A stretch of 64,000 nucleotides of DNA from a virus: positions 26,241 through 90,240 of IMG/VR virus record IMGVR_UViG_3300025362_000005, one strand, 5' to 3'. The translations under genes were made by a program, and so were the position numbers. The notes under the pieces are model-generated. The model was not told where the DNA came from. It made no database searches and worked only from the letters and a program-made list of their open reading frames with translations. Each line of letters starts with the position of its first letter. The stretch's first letter is position 1. This document shows positions 3,337-49,049 of this stretch, piece by piece.

Positions 3337-3822
3337 CTAGGGTCTCCACTTTTCACTGTAATCATCACTTTTCCCATCATTACAGCGTTTACATAAAATT
3401 TGCAAATTTTCTATATTATAGGAAAATTCTGATTCGGGGTGAGCACTGCGAGGTACAATGTGGTCTACAGTCAATTTAGCACCATCTTCAACCCCTCTTC
3501 CGCAAAGACAGCATTTACGACCATACTTAATAAACGCCTCCACCCGTAGCTTCTTCCACCTCTTACTTGAATAAAAGTCCGTTTTAGCCTTTGGTTTTGG
3601 CTTTGTCTCTACAGGTTTACACCCTTTAAAATTACTAACACTATTTATATGTGCCCATAAACAACTACACACATTTGATTTAAGCGCATGATTGCCTGTA
3701 AGATGTCTATAAATTTTTATAAGGGTTTTGTTGCTGACATTATTATTAGTTGTACATAACCCCTTCTTGAAAACCCAATTTACTATCATCTGACGCCGTT
3801 CTGCGGTTATTTTATGACTCAC
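3337..3822 (-). CDS. HNH endonuclease
   Basis: FYSSKRWKKLR..CCLCG..VDHIVP..NLQILCKRCN. Confidence 0.9.
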   Translation of the reverse strand: MSHKITAERRQMIVNWVFKKGLCTTNNNVSNKTLIKIYRHLTGNHALKSNVCSCLWAHINSVSNFKGCKPVETKPKPKAKTDFYSSKRWKKLRVEAFIKYGRKCCLCGRGVEDGAKLTVDHIVPRSAHPESEFSYNIENLQILCKRCNDGKSDDYSEKWRP

Positions 3823-3832
3823 ATATACCCCT

Positions 3833-4846
3833 TTAGTTAAATAACGTATCCACTATTTTCTTAGCACTTAACAACCTTTCTAAATATGTGCCTGTAATTA
3901 TATGACAAGGCATATGTCTCCTCGTGTACATATCTTTTAAAGTACGGTTATTTCGTTCTCTCTCAGCAACCTCTCCTTGGAATCTTAACCCATCATCTAC
4001 CCACGGCACATCTGGCTCTAAATATAATATGAGATCAAACTCTTGCTGATCAATAATGTTCTCAACCACCTTAGAGGTTCTGTCATGATACATTCCCAAA
4101 TAGTACTGTGTGATAACTGCATCAGAATCAACAAACAATATTTTATTGCTTTCATACGCTAATTTATTTTGTAGTAGTATATGTTCCATTGCTATTTGTG
4201 GAAACATTTCGGTTGTTAGATTGTTTTTATACCGCTTGCAGTAGTCACGTCCGACTTCATGACAGTAATTAGTGTAGTAAAGATTAGCAAGCTGTTTTGT
4301 TAACGTACTCTTACCACAGCTCTCTGTGCCCACAATAGCTACTTTTTTAGTAAAGAACTGCCGTGCTGATTTTGTTAAATACTCCCAATTACTGTATATA
4401 TCTTTTTTTATTTCCGTAGCACTTATGTTTACCGTGTCGCGCCTGCTATCAATTACAATGTGTTCAGCATTTGGGTAATACTGGGCAAAGAAAGGGGTAT
4501 AACTGTGTTCTGAACTAAATACATGAGTGATGGGTTCAACTATAATATTCCTTACATCCCTAGTACCATTTTCCCAATCGTATTCAGACTCATCAGCACT
4601 ACAGGTATCGACAATTTCCACTACTTCTATGTTTTCAAAATTATTTAGTTCTTCACTTATCCATGATTTTCTCGTACTACCCGAAATATACTTAATACCT
4701 GCTCGTTCACATAATGCCCGATCTCGTTTTATCGAAGAAATCAATACAACATATAGTTTATCCACAAAGTTGCTTGCGTACATTATAGCATATAAATGAC
4801 CAATATGGAAAGGCAGGAATTTACCACCGATAAAACCTGTTTTCAT
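3833..4846 (-). CDS. nadR: NadR-type NMN adenylyltransferase / ribosylnicotinamide kinase
   Basis: GKFLPFHIGH nucleotidyltransferase motif, ISAT motif, P-loop GTESCGKST, PWVDDGLR; no N-terminal HTH. Confidence 0.92.
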   Translation of the reverse strand: MKTGFIGGKFLPFHIGHLYAIMYASNFVDKLYVVLISSIKRDRALCERAGIKYISGSTRKSWISEELNNFENIEVVEIVDTCSADESEYDWENGTRDVRNIIVEPITHVFSSEHSYTPFFAQYYPNAEHIVIDSRRDTVNISATEIKKDIYSNWEYLTKSARQFFTKKVAIVGTESCGKSTLTKQLANLYYTNYCHEVGRDYCKRYKNNLTTEMFPQIAMEHILLQNKLAYESNKILFVDSDAVITQYYLGMYHDRTSKVVENIIDQQEFDLILYLEPDVPWVDDGLRFQGEVAERERNNRTLKDMYTRRHMPCHIITGTYLERLLSAKKIVDTLFN

Positions 4847-26090: not shown

Positions 26091-26494
26091 TTTATACACT
26101 TGTCAATTATCTGTTTCAGTTTATTACATGTTAGAGCACAAGTAGTGTCTTTAAATAAAGTTGTTGACATATCTTGATTGTTGTCTTTAATGTCAGAAAC
26201 TACCCGTATAGTGTGGATTAATCGTGTACGGTCTTTTGAAACGTGTAGCCAGTATTCTATGTATACTCTATCTCCATTATTTACGTAATCATAGTTGATA
26301 GAAATATCCACTCCATGCACTTTAGGAATATCATCATATGATAGCTTGGGAGTAATATGCACTTCTCTATTCTCAGTATCATAATAAGAAGTAAAACACT
26401 CAACTAACTTAATGTACTTTGCTGATAATATCGTATACATAGTACCTTTACTGACTTTATCCATACTAATATAATAAGTAATATTTTTTTCCAT
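26087..26494 (-). CDS. hypothetical early protein
   Basis: GGAG RBS. Confidence 0.6.
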   Translation of the reverse strand: MEKNITYYISMDKVSKGTMYTILSAKYIKLVECFTSYYDTENREVHITPKLSYDDIPKVHGVDISINYDYVNNGDRVYIEYWLHVSKDRTRLIHTIRVVSDIKDNNQDMSTTLFKDTTCALTCNKLKQIIDKCIK

Positions 26495-43887: not shown

Positions 43888-44280
43888 ATGGATTATGATG
43901 CACTAAAAACAAGAGTAAACAACTTAATAAAACGAAACACTAGTTTAACAATTAGTTTTACTAGACCTGCGTCTACTACGGCTGTGAAACAATATGACCC
44001 TGCTTCCGATACTTTTAAATGGTACACTAGTGGGGTAGAGGTGTCAGAGCCTACAGACACTACTTACACAGGGTACGTAATTGAAACTTATACGAGTGAG
44101 TATTTCAAAGCCAAGGGTTATGTACGTGAATCAGATCGTACATTTATTACTAATGGCGTACCGCGTATAAATAGAAATGAGGTTGTTACTATTGATGGCA
44201 TTACATATACGGCTTATAGAGTAGCAACAGTGAATCCCGGTGGCACAGATGTATTATATAGAATTAGTGTGAGGGTATAA
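43888..44280 (+). CDS. head closure protein
   Basis: Synteny; YDP, NPGG..VLY. Confidence 0.7.
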   Translation: MDYDALKTRVNNLIKRNTSLTISFTRPASTTAVKQYDPASDTFKWYTSGVEVSEPTDTTYTGYVIETYTSEYFKAKGYVRESDRTFITNGVPRINRNEVVTIDGITYTAYRVATVNPGGTDVLYRISVRV

Positions 44281-44283
44281 TTT

Positions 44284-44829
44284 ATGGGTAGTTTTAGGCA
44301 TCCCGGAAGCAAGGGAGAAGCGTTTAGTAAACAGGCAACACTCAGTGTTGAAGGTATGCTAGGCACCATGAATAAGGTTATACAAGAAACTACTATTGAG
44401 TTATATGCTAGGGCAGTAATAAAGACACCTATTAAAGAAACTGATGCAATTAATTCATGGGGGGTTTCAGTTAATACTCCTGATGGGGCTAATAAATTAA
44501 TGGTGTTGGACAACAATGAAAAAGAAAGTGTTATTCAGCAGATTAGTTCAGTGATTAAAGACACTAAATTAAGGGATAATTACTTTTTGAAAAATGATAT
44601 TTATTATATACTTTTATTAGAAAATGGTGGCTATGATGGTATACCTATTCATAGAAATGACCCTTATCCCCCTTGGTATCCTGAGAGCAGGTATCCACGA
44701 CCTTTTACACTATTGACATCAGGTAGAGGGGGCCCAATATCTAAAAAGGCACCAAAGGGTATGGTTAAAGTGACAATGTTAGAATCTGATGATGTTTTTA
44801 GAGACATGAGTACAAAATACGGGGAGTAA
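44284..44829 (+). CDS. neck/tail completion protein (HK97 gp10-like)
   Basis: KTP..NSW..N..YY..LE.G..SKKAPKGMV. Confidence 0.8.
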   Translation: MGSFRHPGSKGEAFSKQATLSVEGMLGTMNKVIQETTIELYARAVIKTPIKETDAINSWGVSVNTPDGANKLMVLDNNEKESVIQQISSVIKDTKLRDNYFLKNDIYYILLLENGGYDGIPIHRNDPYPPWYPESRYPRPFTLLTSGRGGPISKKAPKGMVKVTMLESDDVFRDMSTKYGE

Positions 44830-44832
44830 ATA

Positions 44833-45255
44833 GTGGCAAATACGGCACAGAATGATATAATTACGGTAATGCAGACACCACTCGCATCGCTATCTACAAT
44901 TAGTGCAAGTGATGTAGCATATATAAATGATGAGTACTCTCCGACAAGAGGCACGGCGTGGTTACAGACGTGGATGTTTTTCACTGAATCAACACAGGCA
45001 TCATTAGGGACAACAGGACAGCAACGGTATGATGGATATATGCAGATAGATGTGAGTGTGCCTGTAGGAAATGGTCGCACTGATGTGAACCCAATACTAG
45101 CAGAGTTGATGACAGCGTATAAAAGAGGCACTACATTGACAAATGTTAATATAAGTGTAGAATGTAAACGTGCTTGGGAGAGTACGCCATATAGTGGTGA
45201 AGGTTGGTATGTCGTGCCCCTCAATGTTAGGTGGTACGCCTACACTAGTATTTAG
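44833..45255 (+). CDS. tail terminator (DUF4128-like)
   Basis: G..QIDV..P.G.G..WYVVP..V.W; synteny. Confidence 0.8.
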   Translation: MANTAQNDIITVMQTPLASLSTISASDVAYINDEYSPTRGTAWLQTWMFFTESTQASLGTTGQQRYDGYMQIDVSVPVGNGRTDVNPILAELMTAYKRGTTLTNVNISVECKRAWESTPYSGEGWYVVPLNVRWYAYTSI

Positions 45256-45272
45256 TTAAGGAGTTTGAGGTA

Positions 45273-46490
45273 ATGAATAAAGGGTACAGAGTTAGATTAT
45301 ACCCAAACAAACAACAAGAATCTCAAATAAACATAAATACAAACTGTTCTAGGTTTATATACAATGCTATGTTAGCAGAGCATATTGAGGTATACAACCA
45401 ATTACAGGATGACAAAGAAGAATTGTATGCCTATAAGTATAAAAAAGCAAGTGAATATAAAGTAGATTTTCCTTGGTTAAAAGAAGCATCCTCATGGGCA
45501 TTAAGTGAGTCGTGTAGGAATTTAAGTAGAGCATATGCAAACTTTTATCGTAATATAAAACAAGGAAAGAAAGGCGGGTTCCCTAAATTTAAAAGCAAAA
45601 AGGCAGTAAAGTGGAGTTATACAGAAGCCCAACAGAGAGGTGGTATTCGTATTTTAAATAATAAAATTCATTTACTTAAAATGGGGTGGGTAACTTTCAG
45701 GGGATTATCCAAAGACTTCCAAGGAATAATAAAATCTGTTACCGTTACTAAAACAAGAACTAATAAATATTTTGCTTCTATTTTAGTCGAGTGTGGTGAT
45801 GTAAAAAGAGAAAGAGTTTCTGATAATGTTGTAGGAATTGATTTAGGGCTAAAAGAATTGGCAGTTTGTAGTAATGGAGAATTTATCACTGGCATAAAAG
45901 ACAGAATGGCAGAGATAGAGAATAAAATAAAACAACAAAATCGCCATTTATCAAGAAAGAAATTAGGTAGTAATAGGTATGAAAAATGTAAATTACAATT
46001 AAATAAATTGTGGGAATATAGAAACAATTATTTGAGTCATTTTCAATGGCATTTAGTGAATAAACTTTGTAGTGAAAACCAAGCTATAGGGTTAGAGACT
46101 TTGAATGTTATAGGAATGAGAAAGAATAGAAAATTATCACATGCTATTCAAAATATTAATTGGGGGAGTCTAGTTAGCAAATTGGAAGAAAAGGCTAAAG
46201 AGTATAATACTGTTGTGTATAAAATTGACAGATGGTTTCCATCAACTAAATTATGTAGTAGTTGTGGTGCATTGCATGAAATGCGTTTAAGTGATAGAAT
46301 ATACTCATGTGGTTGCGGTAATGAAATAGACAGGGATTTGAATGCGGGTATTAACATTCGTAATGAAATGTTAGATAATATATCGTTGAAGAACAGCGAT
46401 TACAGACGTGGAGAGACAGTAAAACCAGTGAGACTAGATTATGAAAGCGATGGTAGTTTTGTTGAAGCGTTAACTATGAAAATTGCATAA
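45273..46490 (+). CDS. tnpB: TnpB RNA-guided endonuclease (IS200/IS605 family), no tnpA
   Basis: YRVRLYPN..RFIYN, GFPKFKSK, RuvC GIDLG / GLETL / DRDLNA, Zn finger CSSC..CGC. Confidence 0.95.
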   Translation: MNKGYRVRLYPNKQQESQININTNCSRFIYNAMLAEHIEVYNQLQDDKEELYAYKYKKASEYKVDFPWLKEASSWALSESCRNLSRAYANFYRNIKQGKKGGFPKFKSKKAVKWSYTEAQQRGGIRILNNKIHLLKMGWVTFRGLSKDFQGIIKSVTVTKTRTNKYFASILVECGDVKRERVSDNVVGIDLGLKELAVCSNGEFITGIKDRMAEIENKIKQQNRHLSRKKLGSNRYEKCKLQLNKLWEYRNNYLSHFQWHLVNKLCSENQAIGLETLNVIGMRKNRKLSHAIQNINWGSLVSKLEEKAKEYNTVVYKIDRWFPSTKLCSSCGALHEMRLSDRIYSCGCGNEIDRDLNAGINIRNEMLDNISLKNSDYRRGETVKPVRLDYESDGSFVEALTMKIA

Positions 46491-46536
46491 AGTATTTAGG
46501 CAATAAGAATGGATTTTGTAAGAGGGCGTGGGAAAG
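46395..46536 (+). ncRNA. predicted omegaRNA (scaffold plus guide); boundaries approximate
   Basis: Overlaps the tnpB 3' end; gacgtggag..gaagcgtt and aaaacca/tggtagtttt pairings, hairpin 46482-46504, then the duplicated gene end. Confidence 0.65.
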
Positions 46537-46633
46537 TACACCATATAGTGGTGAAGGTTGGTATGTTGTGCCGCTCAATGTTAGGTGGTACGCATATACA
46601 TCAATATAAAAATTTTAGCTTTGGAGGCATAAA

Positions 46634-47602
46634 ATGAGTGAGTTTAGTTCAGGGTCACAGAGAGACCTATATTATAAAGAAGAGACAGTATATGGTGTAG
46701 TTGAAGGTGGAGTAGCTACAGGATTTACTGAAATACGAAATACTGAGGATTCTATCAGTTTAGTGCGTGATAATTTCGTATCAGATGAGAGACGCGGTGA
46801 CAGAGGTATCCACGACATGAGGTTGGGAAATAAACAGCCCGCAGGGGATATCGGGTTTGAGTTTAGTTATGAGGCATTTGATGACTTTTTAGAAGGTGCA
46901 CTTTGTAGTGATTGGGGGGCAACTACTGCTAATGTATTGGAGAAGGGTGTTGTTTTTCATTCTTATTCAGTGGTAAAAGCTTTTTCTGATATTTTAGAGT
47001 ATCAGTTGTATCCCGGTGGTGTAGTAAACACTATGTCTTTGGATATTAATCCAAATGCGATGGTAACGGGTTCATTTGGCATGATTTTTCAAGATATGTC
47101 TAATGGTACGGGGGTTTATGTAGATACCCCTGCGGCTTCAACTACCAACACACCTTTCGATGGTTTCACAGGTACAATAGAAGAGGGTACAGAAGCAGGG
47201 ACAACAATAGCAGTTGTTTCTTCACTGAGTCTGAGTTTAGACAATGGATTTGAACGAAATTTTGTATTAATGAGTAATAAGAATCCACAGGTCACATGGG
47301 GAAAATCAAATGTAACAGGCAGTATGGTATTATATTTTGAAGACACCGATGAGTATGATAAATTTGTAAATGAAACAGAATCAGGCTTAACAATTACTTT
47401 AGAGGATTTACATACAGGAACATCAGGTAATAAATATAAAATTAGGCTTCCACGTATCAAATATACGAGTGCAGATGCTCCGGTAAACAGTGATGGTTCA
47501 GTTATGATTACTATGAATTTTCAAGCACTTGATGATGAATCAGTAGCTGACGGTGGGATAGCAACAAACATACAGATTACACGTATTGTTGCAGTAGCAT
47601 AG
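46634..47602 (+). CDS. tail tube protein 1
   Basis: SDE.R.DR..G.K..AGD, LDNG, G.S.V.GS, LPRIKY. Confidence 0.85.
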   Translation: MSEFSSGSQRDLYYKEETVYGVVEGGVATGFTEIRNTEDSISLVRDNFVSDERRGDRGIHDMRLGNKQPAGDIGFEFSYEAFDDFLEGALCSDWGATTANVLEKGVVFHSYSVVKAFSDILEYQLYPGGVVNTMSLDINPNAMVTGSFGMIFQDMSNGTGVYVDTPAASTTNTPFDGFTGTIEEGTEAGTTIAVVSSLSLSLDNGFERNFVLMSNKNPQVTWGKSNVTGSMVLYFEDTDEYDKFVNETESGLTITLEDLHTGTSGNKYKIRLPRIKYTSADAPVNSDGSVMITMNFQALDDESVADGGIATNIQITRIVAVA

Positions 47603-47612
47603 GGGGTAGAGC

Positions 47613-49049
47613 ATGAGCGATTTTAGTTCAGGGTCACAAAGAGACCTATTTTACACATTAGAAGATAGCTTTGGTTCAGGGCCTAGTGTTCTGAATATGG
47701 CTGAGATAAGGAATACTGAAGACTCCATTAGTTTAGTACGAGACAATTTTGTTTCTGATGAACGGCGTGGTGACAGAGGTATTCATGATATGCGGTTAGG
47801 CAATAAACAGCCTGCCGGTGACATGGGATTTGAATTAAGTTTTGATGAATATGATAGATTGATGCCATTAGCACTTTGTAGCGATTTATCTGCAAATGGT
47901 ATTACTACTACGAATATGACAGCAACGTATATAGATGCACCTACAGGAGTTATGACTTCAACAGGTGAAACATTTGTAACAAAGGGATTTGAAGTAGGGG
48001 ATAAAGTAGTTACAACGGGTTGGAGTGATGGTGGAAACAATGGCACATTTACTATAAATGCAGTTACTGAAGAGACTATGACGCTTTCACCTATTACCGG
48101 TTTAGTAACAGTGGCAGTAGGAGATGCAGAAGCAACAGTAGATTTAGCGGCATGGAGTCCATGGACAGCACCTTATACTGATTTATCGGTATCGGTAGTA
48201 GCTACGATAACAGTAAATACATTTGTAAGAGCAAGTGGTAGTTGGATAACAGACGGCGTAAGAGTTGGGGATGCAATAACAACCACAACTTTTGATGTTG
48301 AAGCAGGAAACAATTTAACTACTTATGTAACTGCTTTATCAGCATTGACTATGACGGTAGCAGGAGCACTTACAACTGCTATTGCAGATGTAGGGGTTTT
48401 CAACACAACTGCAAGAGAAATCAAGAAAGGAACAACGGTAAGAAGTTTAGTTCTTGAAAAGGCCTTTACAGACATAGCGGAATATCAGAAATACACGGGT
48501 GGGATTGTAAACACGTTGTCATTAGACATCAATCCAAACGCAATTGTAACAGGCTCCTTTGGGATGCTTTTCAAAGATGCGGTAAACAGTACATCAGCAT
48601 ACCATAGTGGAACCCCTGTAGCAACAAGCACCAACAGACCTTTTGATGGATTTAGTGGGTATATAAATGAAGCAAATGCCGCAAACGCACTTGCAAGTGG
48701 ATTAAGCATTAGTTTAGACAATGGATTTGAACGAAACTTTGTATTAATGGCAAATACTTGTCCACAAATGACAAGTGGTAAATCAAACGTAACAGGGAGT
48801 ATAACTTATTACTTTCCTGATCAGACGCTTTACAACAAGTTTGTTAATGAAACAGAATCTAGTTTAGAGGTACGACTAGTAGATGATGACTTAGAAGGAT
48901 TTATTGTTACATTACCAAGAATCAAATACACCAGTGCGGATACACCAATCAACAGTGATGGAGCTGTTATAAACACAATGAATTTTCAAGCACTTGATGA
49001 CTCAACAGAAGCATCAAACATAATTATTAGGAGACAACCTACGGCATAG
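47613..49049 (+). CDS. tail tube protein 2 (paralog with inserted beta domains)
   Basis: Long blocks identical to tube 1 plus about 155 extra aa. Confidence 0.85.
   Translation: MSDFSSGSQRDLFYTLEDSFGSGPSVLNMAEIRNTEDSISLVRDNFVSDERRGDRGIHDMRLGNKQPAGDMGFELSFDEYDRLMPLALCSDLSANGITTTNMTATYIDAPTGVMTSTGETFVTKGFEVGDKVVTTGWSDGGNNGTFTINAVTEETMTLSPITGLVTVAVGDAEATVDLAAWSPWTAPYTDLSVSVVATITVNTFVRASGSWITDGVRVGDAITTTTFDVEAGNNLTTYVTALSALTMTVAGALTTAIADVGVFNTTAREIKKGTTVRSLVLEKAFTDIAEYQKYTGGIVNTLSLDINPNAIVTGSFGMLFKDAVNSTSAYHSGTPVATSTNRPFDGFSGYINEANAANALASGLSISLDNGFERNFVLMANTCPQMTSGKSNVTGSITYYFPDQTLYNKFVNETESSLEVRLVDDDLEGFIVTLPRIKYTSADTPINSDGAVINTMNFQALDDSTEASNIIIRRQPTA

Follow-up and report, generated by a model that had tools for sequence, protein, structure and literature searches.

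A transposase-free TnpB cassette with a re-spelled gene end in a phage tail-terminator gene: a candidate RNA-guided home-and-rescue homing element of IS607 ancestry

How can a nuclease gene reside in the coding sequence of an essential phage tail gene, and why does a second, untranslated copy of the end of that gene lie on its far side? This question is raised by a 64,000-nucleotide (nt) stretch of viral DNA, hereafter the window, which covers positions 26,241 to 90,240 of the IMG/VR virus record IMGVR_UViG_3300025362_000005, a 90-kb record estimated to be 76% complete. In the window, a single tnpB gene is flanked by two copies of the last 30 codons and the stop of a tail-terminator gene, as shown in Table 1. 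We read this locus as an RNA-guided "home-and-rescue" homing cassette of IS607 ancestry, with a probability of roughly 0.6. The cassette would direct cutting of relatives that lack it and would supply the gene end that it displaces. The comparative tests that were available all favour such a cut-and-rescue cassette; the ends of the guide RNA, the target-adjacent motif (TAM), cleavage, immunity and copying are what we infer from the sequence.

Each of the two copies is 93 nt long, and the translation of either is CKRAWESTPYSGEGWYVVPLNVRWYAYTSI followed by the stop. The copies differ at 16 nt in 13 codons, at positions 6, 7, 9, 12, 18, 24, 51, 57, 78, 81, 84–87, 90 and 93, and all of the differences are synonymous. 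The synonymous fraction of the possible single substitutions in this stretch is 58/279 (21%), and the probability that 16 of 16 differences are silent by chance is about 1e-11 (0 of 200,000 simulations). The differences number 6 on approximately 4.0 silent sites in nt 1–24, 2 on 10.7 silent sites in nt 25–75, and 8 on 4.7 silent sites in nt 76–93. The two copies, their 16 silent differences in 13 codons and the 6/2/8 split are exactly as a first-pass annotation, made by a model from the letters alone, had reported. The silence of all the differences indicates that both copies evolved as working genes in different lineages. The sequence is present in salt-lake metagenome runs and in one marine run, and its junctions are covered by an independent IMG/VR contig (L005/L260) and by Logan contigs of several runs. 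Two trivial origins of the duplication were considered and rejected: an assembly artefact, because independent contigs span the junctions, and a local duplication followed by drift, because the differences are all silent and the last 18 nt are linked to the cassette, as described below.

The upstream copy completes the tail-terminator gene, including the stop TAG. In the downstream copy, no in-frame ATG, GTG or TTG was found after the nearest upstream stop, and the copy is followed by the ribosome-binding site (RBS) of the tail-tube gene and its ATG at 46634, in agreement with the earlier description of a copy that has no start of its own. The gene is thus made whole by its duplicated end and not by the splicing of an intron; the scan for group I introns returned no Rfam family at E up to 1 in 44000–47500 on either strand.

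The terminator gene, of 423 bp, is syntenic with that of three cassette-free relatives, L002 and L003 (both at 89% protein identity) and L171, in which it is directly followed by the tube gene. In L002 and L003, the motif GAATG is followed by a native-type gene end. The first 20 nt of this end in L002, which is the region of the predicted guide, show 1 mismatch to the downstream copy and 5 to the upstream copy, as expected by the first-pass annotation, which had proposed that cassette-free relatives would match the downstream copy. In a Logan contig of run X11, 45212 is connected directly to 46580, and 13 letters are substituted; this is a further, diverged allele without the cassette, and a diverged allele of this kind occurs in one marine run.

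The nuclease gene itself is well preserved. Its Pfam domains are HTH_OrfB_IS605, OrfB_IS605 (RuvC) and the Cas12f-like TNB zinc ribbon (E = 2.9e-13, 4.6e-21 and 1.9e-18, respectively), and the protein aligns over its full length to the ISDra2 TnpB structures (PDB 8bf8 and 8h1j, E = 2.6e-59). In an alignment of 34 homologous sequences, the RuvC triad D190, E275 and D355, which had already been called intact, is invariant, as are residues C328, C331, C346 and C348 of the CxxC..CxC zinc finger. The gene is present in a single copy in the 90-kb record. Its GC content is consistent with a foreign origin, as the cassette (45273–46516) has 31.5% and the flanking tail genes approximately 39%. Approximately 90 TnpB homologues with identities of 45–81% were collected; one of them, P0003, is 78% identical, and another, P0002, is a TnpB of the type of a sister allele, L004, on a 19-kb contig. 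Among the matches listed in a metagenome scan, there were at least one close relative (the L004 contig again) and at least two at 50–58% identity, and no additional member of the immediate subclade came from two more scans of IMG/VR with TnpB alignments. Between the window and L004, tnpB shows 0.05–0.22 changes per non-synonymous site and 0.30–0.64 per synonymous site; on these rates the protein is judged to be under purifying selection.

The synonymous divergence between the two alleles is only 0.11 across the final 45 tnpB codons (46353–46490), which fits a functional RNA overlapping the 3′ end of the gene. The putative scaffold ends share the motif GAAT(A/G)GATTTT in the window, in L004 and in another relative, L173, whose right-end sequences are GAATGGATTTTG, GAATAGATTTTG and GAATAGATTTTT, respectively. 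Three cassette variants, those of the window, L004 and a contig of run X11, match up to the G at 46518 and then diverge. In a described element of the IS607 family, the TAM equals the target motif of the recombinase, the last two bases of the scaffold are the last two bases of the TAM, and a base further upstream tells target from self (PMC10690162). In the window, the left flank ends in GAATG (45160–45164) and the scaffold in TTTTG (46514–46518), and both share the dinucleotide TG. The TG at both ends, taken with the IS607 rule, would place the start of the guide at 46519 and predicts a TAM of approximately RTG. The scaffold therefore probably ends at the TG of 46517–46518. The first-pass annotation had placed the guide at about 46517–46536 and had sought the TAM around gtagaa/tgt. 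The placement of the guide just 3′ of the scaffold is retained, while its probable start is shifted to 46519 by the TG rule, and the TAM is revised to RTG, in the form GAATG, from the TG junctions.

The guide that is predicted in this manner would be harmless to its carrier. The 19-mer 46518–46536 has itself as its sole match at up to 3 mismatches in the 64-kb window. The upstream copy, which is the copy adjacent to the predicted TAM, has 4 mismatches within guide positions 1–10, and the DNA that encodes the guide is preceded by TTTG instead of AATG. These features also bear on the idea that the protein is a domesticated TldR-type RNA-guided regulator, which would bind the gene end to tune late-gene expression. 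TnpB-derived transcription factors encoded by phages do exist (PMC10705468), but the catalytic triad is intact and invariant here, and the only matching site in the window is the template of the guide, which lacks the predicted TAM. We consider this idea to be barely credible.

The ancestry of the cassette is indicated by its relatives. L088 and L173 carry a tnpA with a Resolvase domain that overlaps the start of tnpB (E = 5.5e-17 and 1.9e-21), and the presence of a serine recombinase in both indicates that the clade is of the IS607 type and not of the Y1 type of IS200/IS605, the family that the first-pass annotation had mentioned. Neither a Y1 transposase nor a gene of the serine recombinase or resolvase type was found in the 90-kb record, which agrees with the earlier statement that tnpA is missing. 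Only 17 nt, with the RBS inside, separate the stop of the tail gene from the ATG of tnpB, and the sequence further upstream is coding, which leaves no room for a left end or for tnpA. On these comparisons, the window element is taken to be a transposase-less derivative of an IS607-type TnpB element. As separate observations, L173 (1–260 and 1792–1990) is a complete IS607-type relative with tnpA and tnpB; its right-end motif provides the ATG and first codons of the next gene, the start of which reads MNRFFIADTHFNH, and a degenerate second copy of the tnpB 3′ end and scaffold lies upstream of its tnpA.

With such an ancestry, it should be considered whether a serine recombinase encoded by the host or by a phage moved a non-autonomous tnpB element in trans, with TnpB serving only restorative homing after excision. 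The IS607-type clade, the TG junctions with a consistent upstream purine, as expected for the target motif of a recombinase, and the several junction positions within one gene, which are described below, are in line with this mechanism. However, the left end is absent, as the 17-nt spacing shows, and the recombinase is absent from the incomplete record. Moreover, an essential gene would be lost if an element were simply inserted 31 codons ahead of its stop, and in both alleles tnpB is accompanied by the copy of the gene end. Transposition in trans is therefore very improbable as an account of the locus.

The sister allele L004 shows that cassette and backbone have different histories. L004 has the same arrangement as the window, with a tnpB allele that is 81% identical, and the stop–RBS–ATG junction is also present. 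To the right of about 46581, L004 and the window are 99.9% identical over 2.7 kb, whereas from about 45162 to 46580 the identity is only 67–94%. In the 30 nt to the left of 45163, L004 differs from the window only at 45162 (29/30). An L004-type contig that reaches 45030 has 60 mismatches over 45030–45521, and L004 itself has approximately 63 over 45133–45521; these totals, for which positions are not listed, suggest that there is little divergence to the left of 45133 between the L004-type and window backbones. Both cassette alleles occur in salt-lake metagenomes and, in one case, in a single metagenome run, X2. A backbone that is approximately 99.9% identical around a cassette that is approximately 80% identical indicates that the cassette moves independently of the backbone, and the presence of two diverged alleles in one backbone, with the boundary at the predicted insertion point, is what copying by recombination predicts.

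The sister allele also helps to explain which parts of the gene end were re-spelled. In nt 1–24, the upstream copy of the window is the outlier, with 5–7 differences to the downstream copy, the L004 upstream copy and L002, which differ mutually by only 2–3. In nt 76–93, the two cassette-borne copies differ by 4 from each other, and each differs from the native copy by 8. This grouping of the cassette-borne copies indicates that the last 18 nt and the RBS travel with tnpB. In L004, the sequence behind the scaffold can be read as codons A-V-E-C-R from a more divergent allele, with a start three codons earlier and a deletion after them, and approximately 41 nt of the displaced copy have been lost. 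Its guide would thus be different from that of the window cassette, and its upstream copy is native-like in nt 1–24. For the 20-mer after the L004 scaffold, neither the window nor the 90-kb record contains a site with 3 or fewer mismatches. The re-spelling of the guide-matching stretch, which is found only in the window cassette, appears to track the guide that is carried. The flank of L004 reads GACTG instead of GAATG (codon GAA>GAC, by which AATG becomes ACTG), which places a pyrimidine at −3 as in the scaffold ends. Carriers would escape self-cutting either by re-spelling of the seed, as in the window, or by a change of the TAM, as in L004.

The separate history of the cassette is of importance for a second alternative, in which TnpB is an interference weapon only. 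Here competitor phages would be cut during co-infection without efficient copying of the cassette, to the benefit of the carrier phage and not of the cassette. The evidence for targeting is the same as for the home-and-rescue cassette, and homing endonucleases, both intron-encoded and free-standing, have been reported to act in phage–phage competition (PMC11620839; PMC13565253). The separate histories of cassette and backbone, however, imply a transfer between near-identical genomes that killing alone leaves unexplained. Interference as the sole function is thus improbable, although the two roles are not mutually exclusive.

In addition to the junction of the window, other junctions were found in the same gene, in short contigs that provide weaker evidence. 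In the contig of run X11, the scaffold TG is followed by ATAT and then by the sequence from 46592 onward. This junction corresponds to the native TG at 46586–46587 (AGGTG), 8 codons before the stop, with two substitutions; the copy may have decayed, or the guide position may be an older or alternative one. In this variant, 73 nt of the displaced copy are missing, and the 7 codons that remain at the end of the gene have TGA in place of the Trp codon. Were a guide to start at this point, 8 codons before the stop, it would also explain the many silent changes in the last 18 nt of the cassette-borne copy, and this cluster may reflect a sister cassette with such a guide. A related scaffold in contigs of X2 and X9 continues into the sequence from 44834, where the TG belongs to the GTG start codon (ATAGTG), and a matching left junction joins 44840 to the tnpB RBS. 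The three right junctions with a readable native site are all at TG with a purine at −3, and the left junction (gene end, RBS and tnpB) is constant in the three cassettes where it is readable. There may be up to four scaffold–guide junctions in or beside this 423-bp gene.

Some further details of the X2 and X9 Logan contigs (44830–44840 and 46496–46503) are given here as side observations. The tnpB cassette in them, which is approximately 88% identical at its 5′ end, appears to lie at the start of the terminator gene. These short contigs have TGGCAAA on both sides, and an 11-codon open reading frame runs into the tnpB ATG. An AAGGAG in the end of the scaffold would act as the RBS for a terminator gene initiated at CTG.

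To see the locus in a wider setting, approximately 226 phage and metagenome TnpB loci were scanned for similarity between the upstream and downstream flanks. As shown in Table 1, at four further independent loci (L180, L216, L230 and the L236 group) a diverged duplicate of part of the interrupted gene precedes tnpB, and the displaced copy follows tnpB immediately. The TnpB proteins concerned belong to unrelated lineages, the displaced copy occupies the position of the guide in every case, and the duplicated-end arrangement is, as judged from these flanks, not unique to this phage; a search for tnpB between duplicated gene ends had been suggested by the first-pass annotation. For the integrase gene of L180, the cassette-free relatives are at most 78% identical, which is too diverged to tell which copy is native. 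Apart from these loci, direct repeats of 20–45 nt, identical or nearly so, were observed in the upstream and downstream tnpB flanks of L039, L148, L234 and L142; these may be ends of elements, copies of the target or guides that match themselves. A more general proposal is that there is a recurrent class of transposase-free TnpB cassettes, which would be natural RNA-guided home-and-rescue drives in essential phage genes and would be retargeted merely by shifting the right junction to new RTG sites. This proposal is tentative, and we regard it as possible but short of an even chance.

The mechanism that we propose for the window is as follows. The mobile unit (~45165–46518) would consist of the last 30 codons and the stop in re-spelled form, followed by the RBS, tnpB and the omegaRNA scaffold. 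Its insertion point would be the TG dinucleotide that lies 31 codons from the end of the tail-terminator gene. Behind the scaffold comes the native end displaced by the cassette, and this end would therefore template the guide from about 46519. During co-infection, cassette-free relatives would be cut where the TnpB–omegaRNA complex recognises RTG together with the native sequence. The cassette-bearing genome would be the template for repair of the break, with the gene body as the left arm and the displaced end and tube gene as the right arm, so that the cassette is copied in; otherwise, the rival would simply be removed. The carrier would be protected by the 4 mismatches in the TAM-adjacent copy and by the TTTG in front of the guide DNA, and the gene would be kept whole by the codons that the cassette supplies. 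One candidate for the origin is that a serine recombinase joined the right end of an intergenic tnpB, by a one-ended crossover, to an RTG site of a relative during co-infection, which would yield such a duplication in a single step.

Several results weigh against the home-and-rescue cassette. The scaffold has no Rfam match at E up to 1 and no significant fold; the fold z-score of −0.18 is that of a single sequence and uninformative, and the consensus fold has 5 compensatory pairs among 3 sequences only. The TAM is deduced from three sites, two of which come from short Logan contigs with 27–72 nt on the shorter side. L002 and L003 are diverged and are mismatched at guide position 7, in the seed. 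An exact search of IMG/VR with the guide 20-mer returned only a fragment identical to the window, and among cassette-free genomes none was seen that combines the same backbone with a perfect target. Most of the approximately 226 loci have no duplication of this kind. In addition, the 93-nt repeats could recombine and delete the cassette.

Part of this evidence is shared by a third alternative, namely that recombination left a scar around an IS607 remnant that has only tnpB and is passive. The arrangement would then be a by-product of illegitimate or one-ended recombination between two related phages, the displaced end would be a young pseudogene fragment still to decay, and nothing at this site would now be driven by TnpB. 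The decay of the displaced copy in the sister cassettes (approximately 41 nt lost in L004 and 73 nt in the X11 contig) points in this direction, as do the missing perfect empty target in IMG/VR and the rarity of duplicates among the loci scanned. On the other hand, a passive remnant would not be expected to have an intact tnpB under purifying selection in both alleles, together with a scaffold more conserved than the gene. The re-spelling that follows the guide carried, the two diverged cassette alleles in one backbone, and the recurrence of the layout among TnpB lineages that are not related, each time with its displaced copy where the guide would be, also argue against a scar. A scar is unlikely but more probable than the other alternatives.

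The home-and-rescue cassette can be compared with several known systems. In a full-text literature search on TnpB, no publication describing a TnpB cassette with a replacement gene end was found. The TnpB/omegaRNA systems of IS607 elements (the Clostridium botulinum IStron, PMC10690162) and of ISDra2 have in common with the window the family, the catalytic residues and, on the layout proposed for the window, a scaffold over the tnpB 3′ end. In these elements, too, the DNA adjoining the right end serves as guide, the TAM is found on the left side, and an empty site is cut and repaired from an occupied one, as is proposed for the window. The IS607 core dinucleotide at the end of scaffold and TAM is TG in the window and GG in the Clostridium element (PMC10690162). 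In contrast to these elements, the window cassette has no tnpA, left end or intron, sits in an essential coding sequence and carries a replacement end. Its proposed target is the homologous site in other phage genomes, whereas that of the IS607 and ISDra2 elements is the sister chromosome after excision. Experiments have shown that TnpB can drive the spread of an insertion sequence through plasmid populations (preprint 10.1101/2025.02.20.638934), and a review reads this spread as TnpA-independent and offers "non-restorative homing" into co-infecting phages as a theoretical possibility (PMC13565253). The plasmid case resembles the window in the TnpB-dependent move into empty homologous sites on other copies but concerns complete elements in non-essential sites, with no replacement gene segment.

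The closest structural analogue is found in the fungal mitochondrial mORFs, which reside in atp6 of Allomyces macrogynus and in atp6, atp9, cox2 and nad3 of Glomus (PMC3630166). Their layout is identical: a gene core, an in-frame foreign C-terminus, an endonuclease gene and the displaced native C-terminus. There, too, the native copy matches close relatives, and the inserted copy is diverged in DNA while its protein is nearly or fully identical. The mORFs encode LAGLIDADG or GIY-YIG proteins that read DNA directly, whereas the nuclease of the window is a TnpB with a proposed guide RNA. If the guide is templated on the displaced end, as proposed, the target specificity is written in the scar. 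The free-standing homing endonucleases SegF, SegB and MobE of T-even phages (PMC13565253) show the transfer during co-infection and the co-conversion of flanks that are proposed here, but they lie between genes, have no duplicated gene part and are guided by protein. In function, the nearest analogue is the engineered home-and-rescue drive (PMC7968924). The engineered HomeR and cleave-and-rescue CRISPR drives (PMC7968924, PMC10592828) likewise combine an RNA-guided nuclease, an essential target gene and a re-coded, resistant 3′ part. They are synthetic, use Cas9 and operate in diploid animals or plants, whereas the window has a natural TnpB in a phage; the likeness is one of function and not of membership.

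If the proposed mechanism is confirmed, TnpB, the ancestor of Cas12, would be able to spread without a transposase as an RNA-guided homing element. It would invade essential viral genes with its own cleavage-resistant rescue copy, as a natural counterpart of the engineered home-and-rescue design. Such an element would link transposon-encoded guide RNAs, homing endonucleases and phage–phage competition, and it would be a plausible step between the maintenance of transposons and the targeting of foreign genomes. Guides, targets and TAMs would be readable straight from sequence because the target allele is preserved beside the scaffold.

Table 1. Coordinates of the features of the locus in the window and of the duplicated gene parts at other TnpB loci (positions of the latter refer to the respective locus).
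Feature	Position	Strand	Description	Basis
Tail-terminator gene	44833–45255	+	Hybrid: native body and cassette-borne last 30 codons	Pfam Phage_tail_terminator_5, E = 2.8e-13
Predicted TAM	45160–45164	+	GAATG; TG core dinucleotide at 45163–45164	Inference from IS607 rule
Upstream copy	45163–45255	+	Cassette-borne, re-spelled gene end including stop TAG	Pairwise comparison of copies
tnpB RBS	45258–45263	+	AAGGAG, 9 nt before ATG	Sequence
tnpB	45273–46490	+	405 aa; intact RuvC triad and zinc finger	Pfam, alignment, structure match
Inferred omegaRNA scaffold	46353–46518	+	Last 45 tnpB codons and 28 nt, ending GGATTTTG	Synonymous divergence, shared end motif
Downstream copy	46517–46609	+	Displaced native gene end, untranslated	Comparison of copies, start-codon scan
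Predicted guide	46519–46538	+	TAAGAGGGCGTGGGAAAGTA	Position directly 3′ of scaffold end
Tail-tube RBS and tail-tube gene	46623–47602	+	RBS GGAGG	Pfam Phage_tube_2, E = 1.5e-45
L180	3860–3928 and 5237–5305		Last 22 codons of integrase-family gene	48/69 nt and 18/22 aa identical
L216	3315–3476 and 4864–5025		N-terminal part of T4-type RNA ligase gene, opposite strand	
L230	3823–3879 and 5243–5299		Gene without assigned identity	
L236 group	3757–3849 and 5202–5294		Gene without assigned identity	

With regard to the neighbouring genes, no GenBank phage matched 43800–48000 in a blastn search against INPHARED. The tail-tube protein is 100% identical in the L004 contig. A sigma-70-like match at 45136–45163 (TTGACA, 16 nt, TAGAAT; 11/12) ends exactly at the predicted TAM and is kept as TTGACT...TAGAAT in the cassette-free L002; such matches are no commoner in the region than in shuffled sequences. 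The window has two tandem Phage_tube_2 paralogues (46634–47602 and 47613–49049) that share DNA segments of 67–72% identity. The second of them carries an insertion of approximately 150 aa, and the same pair is present in L002.

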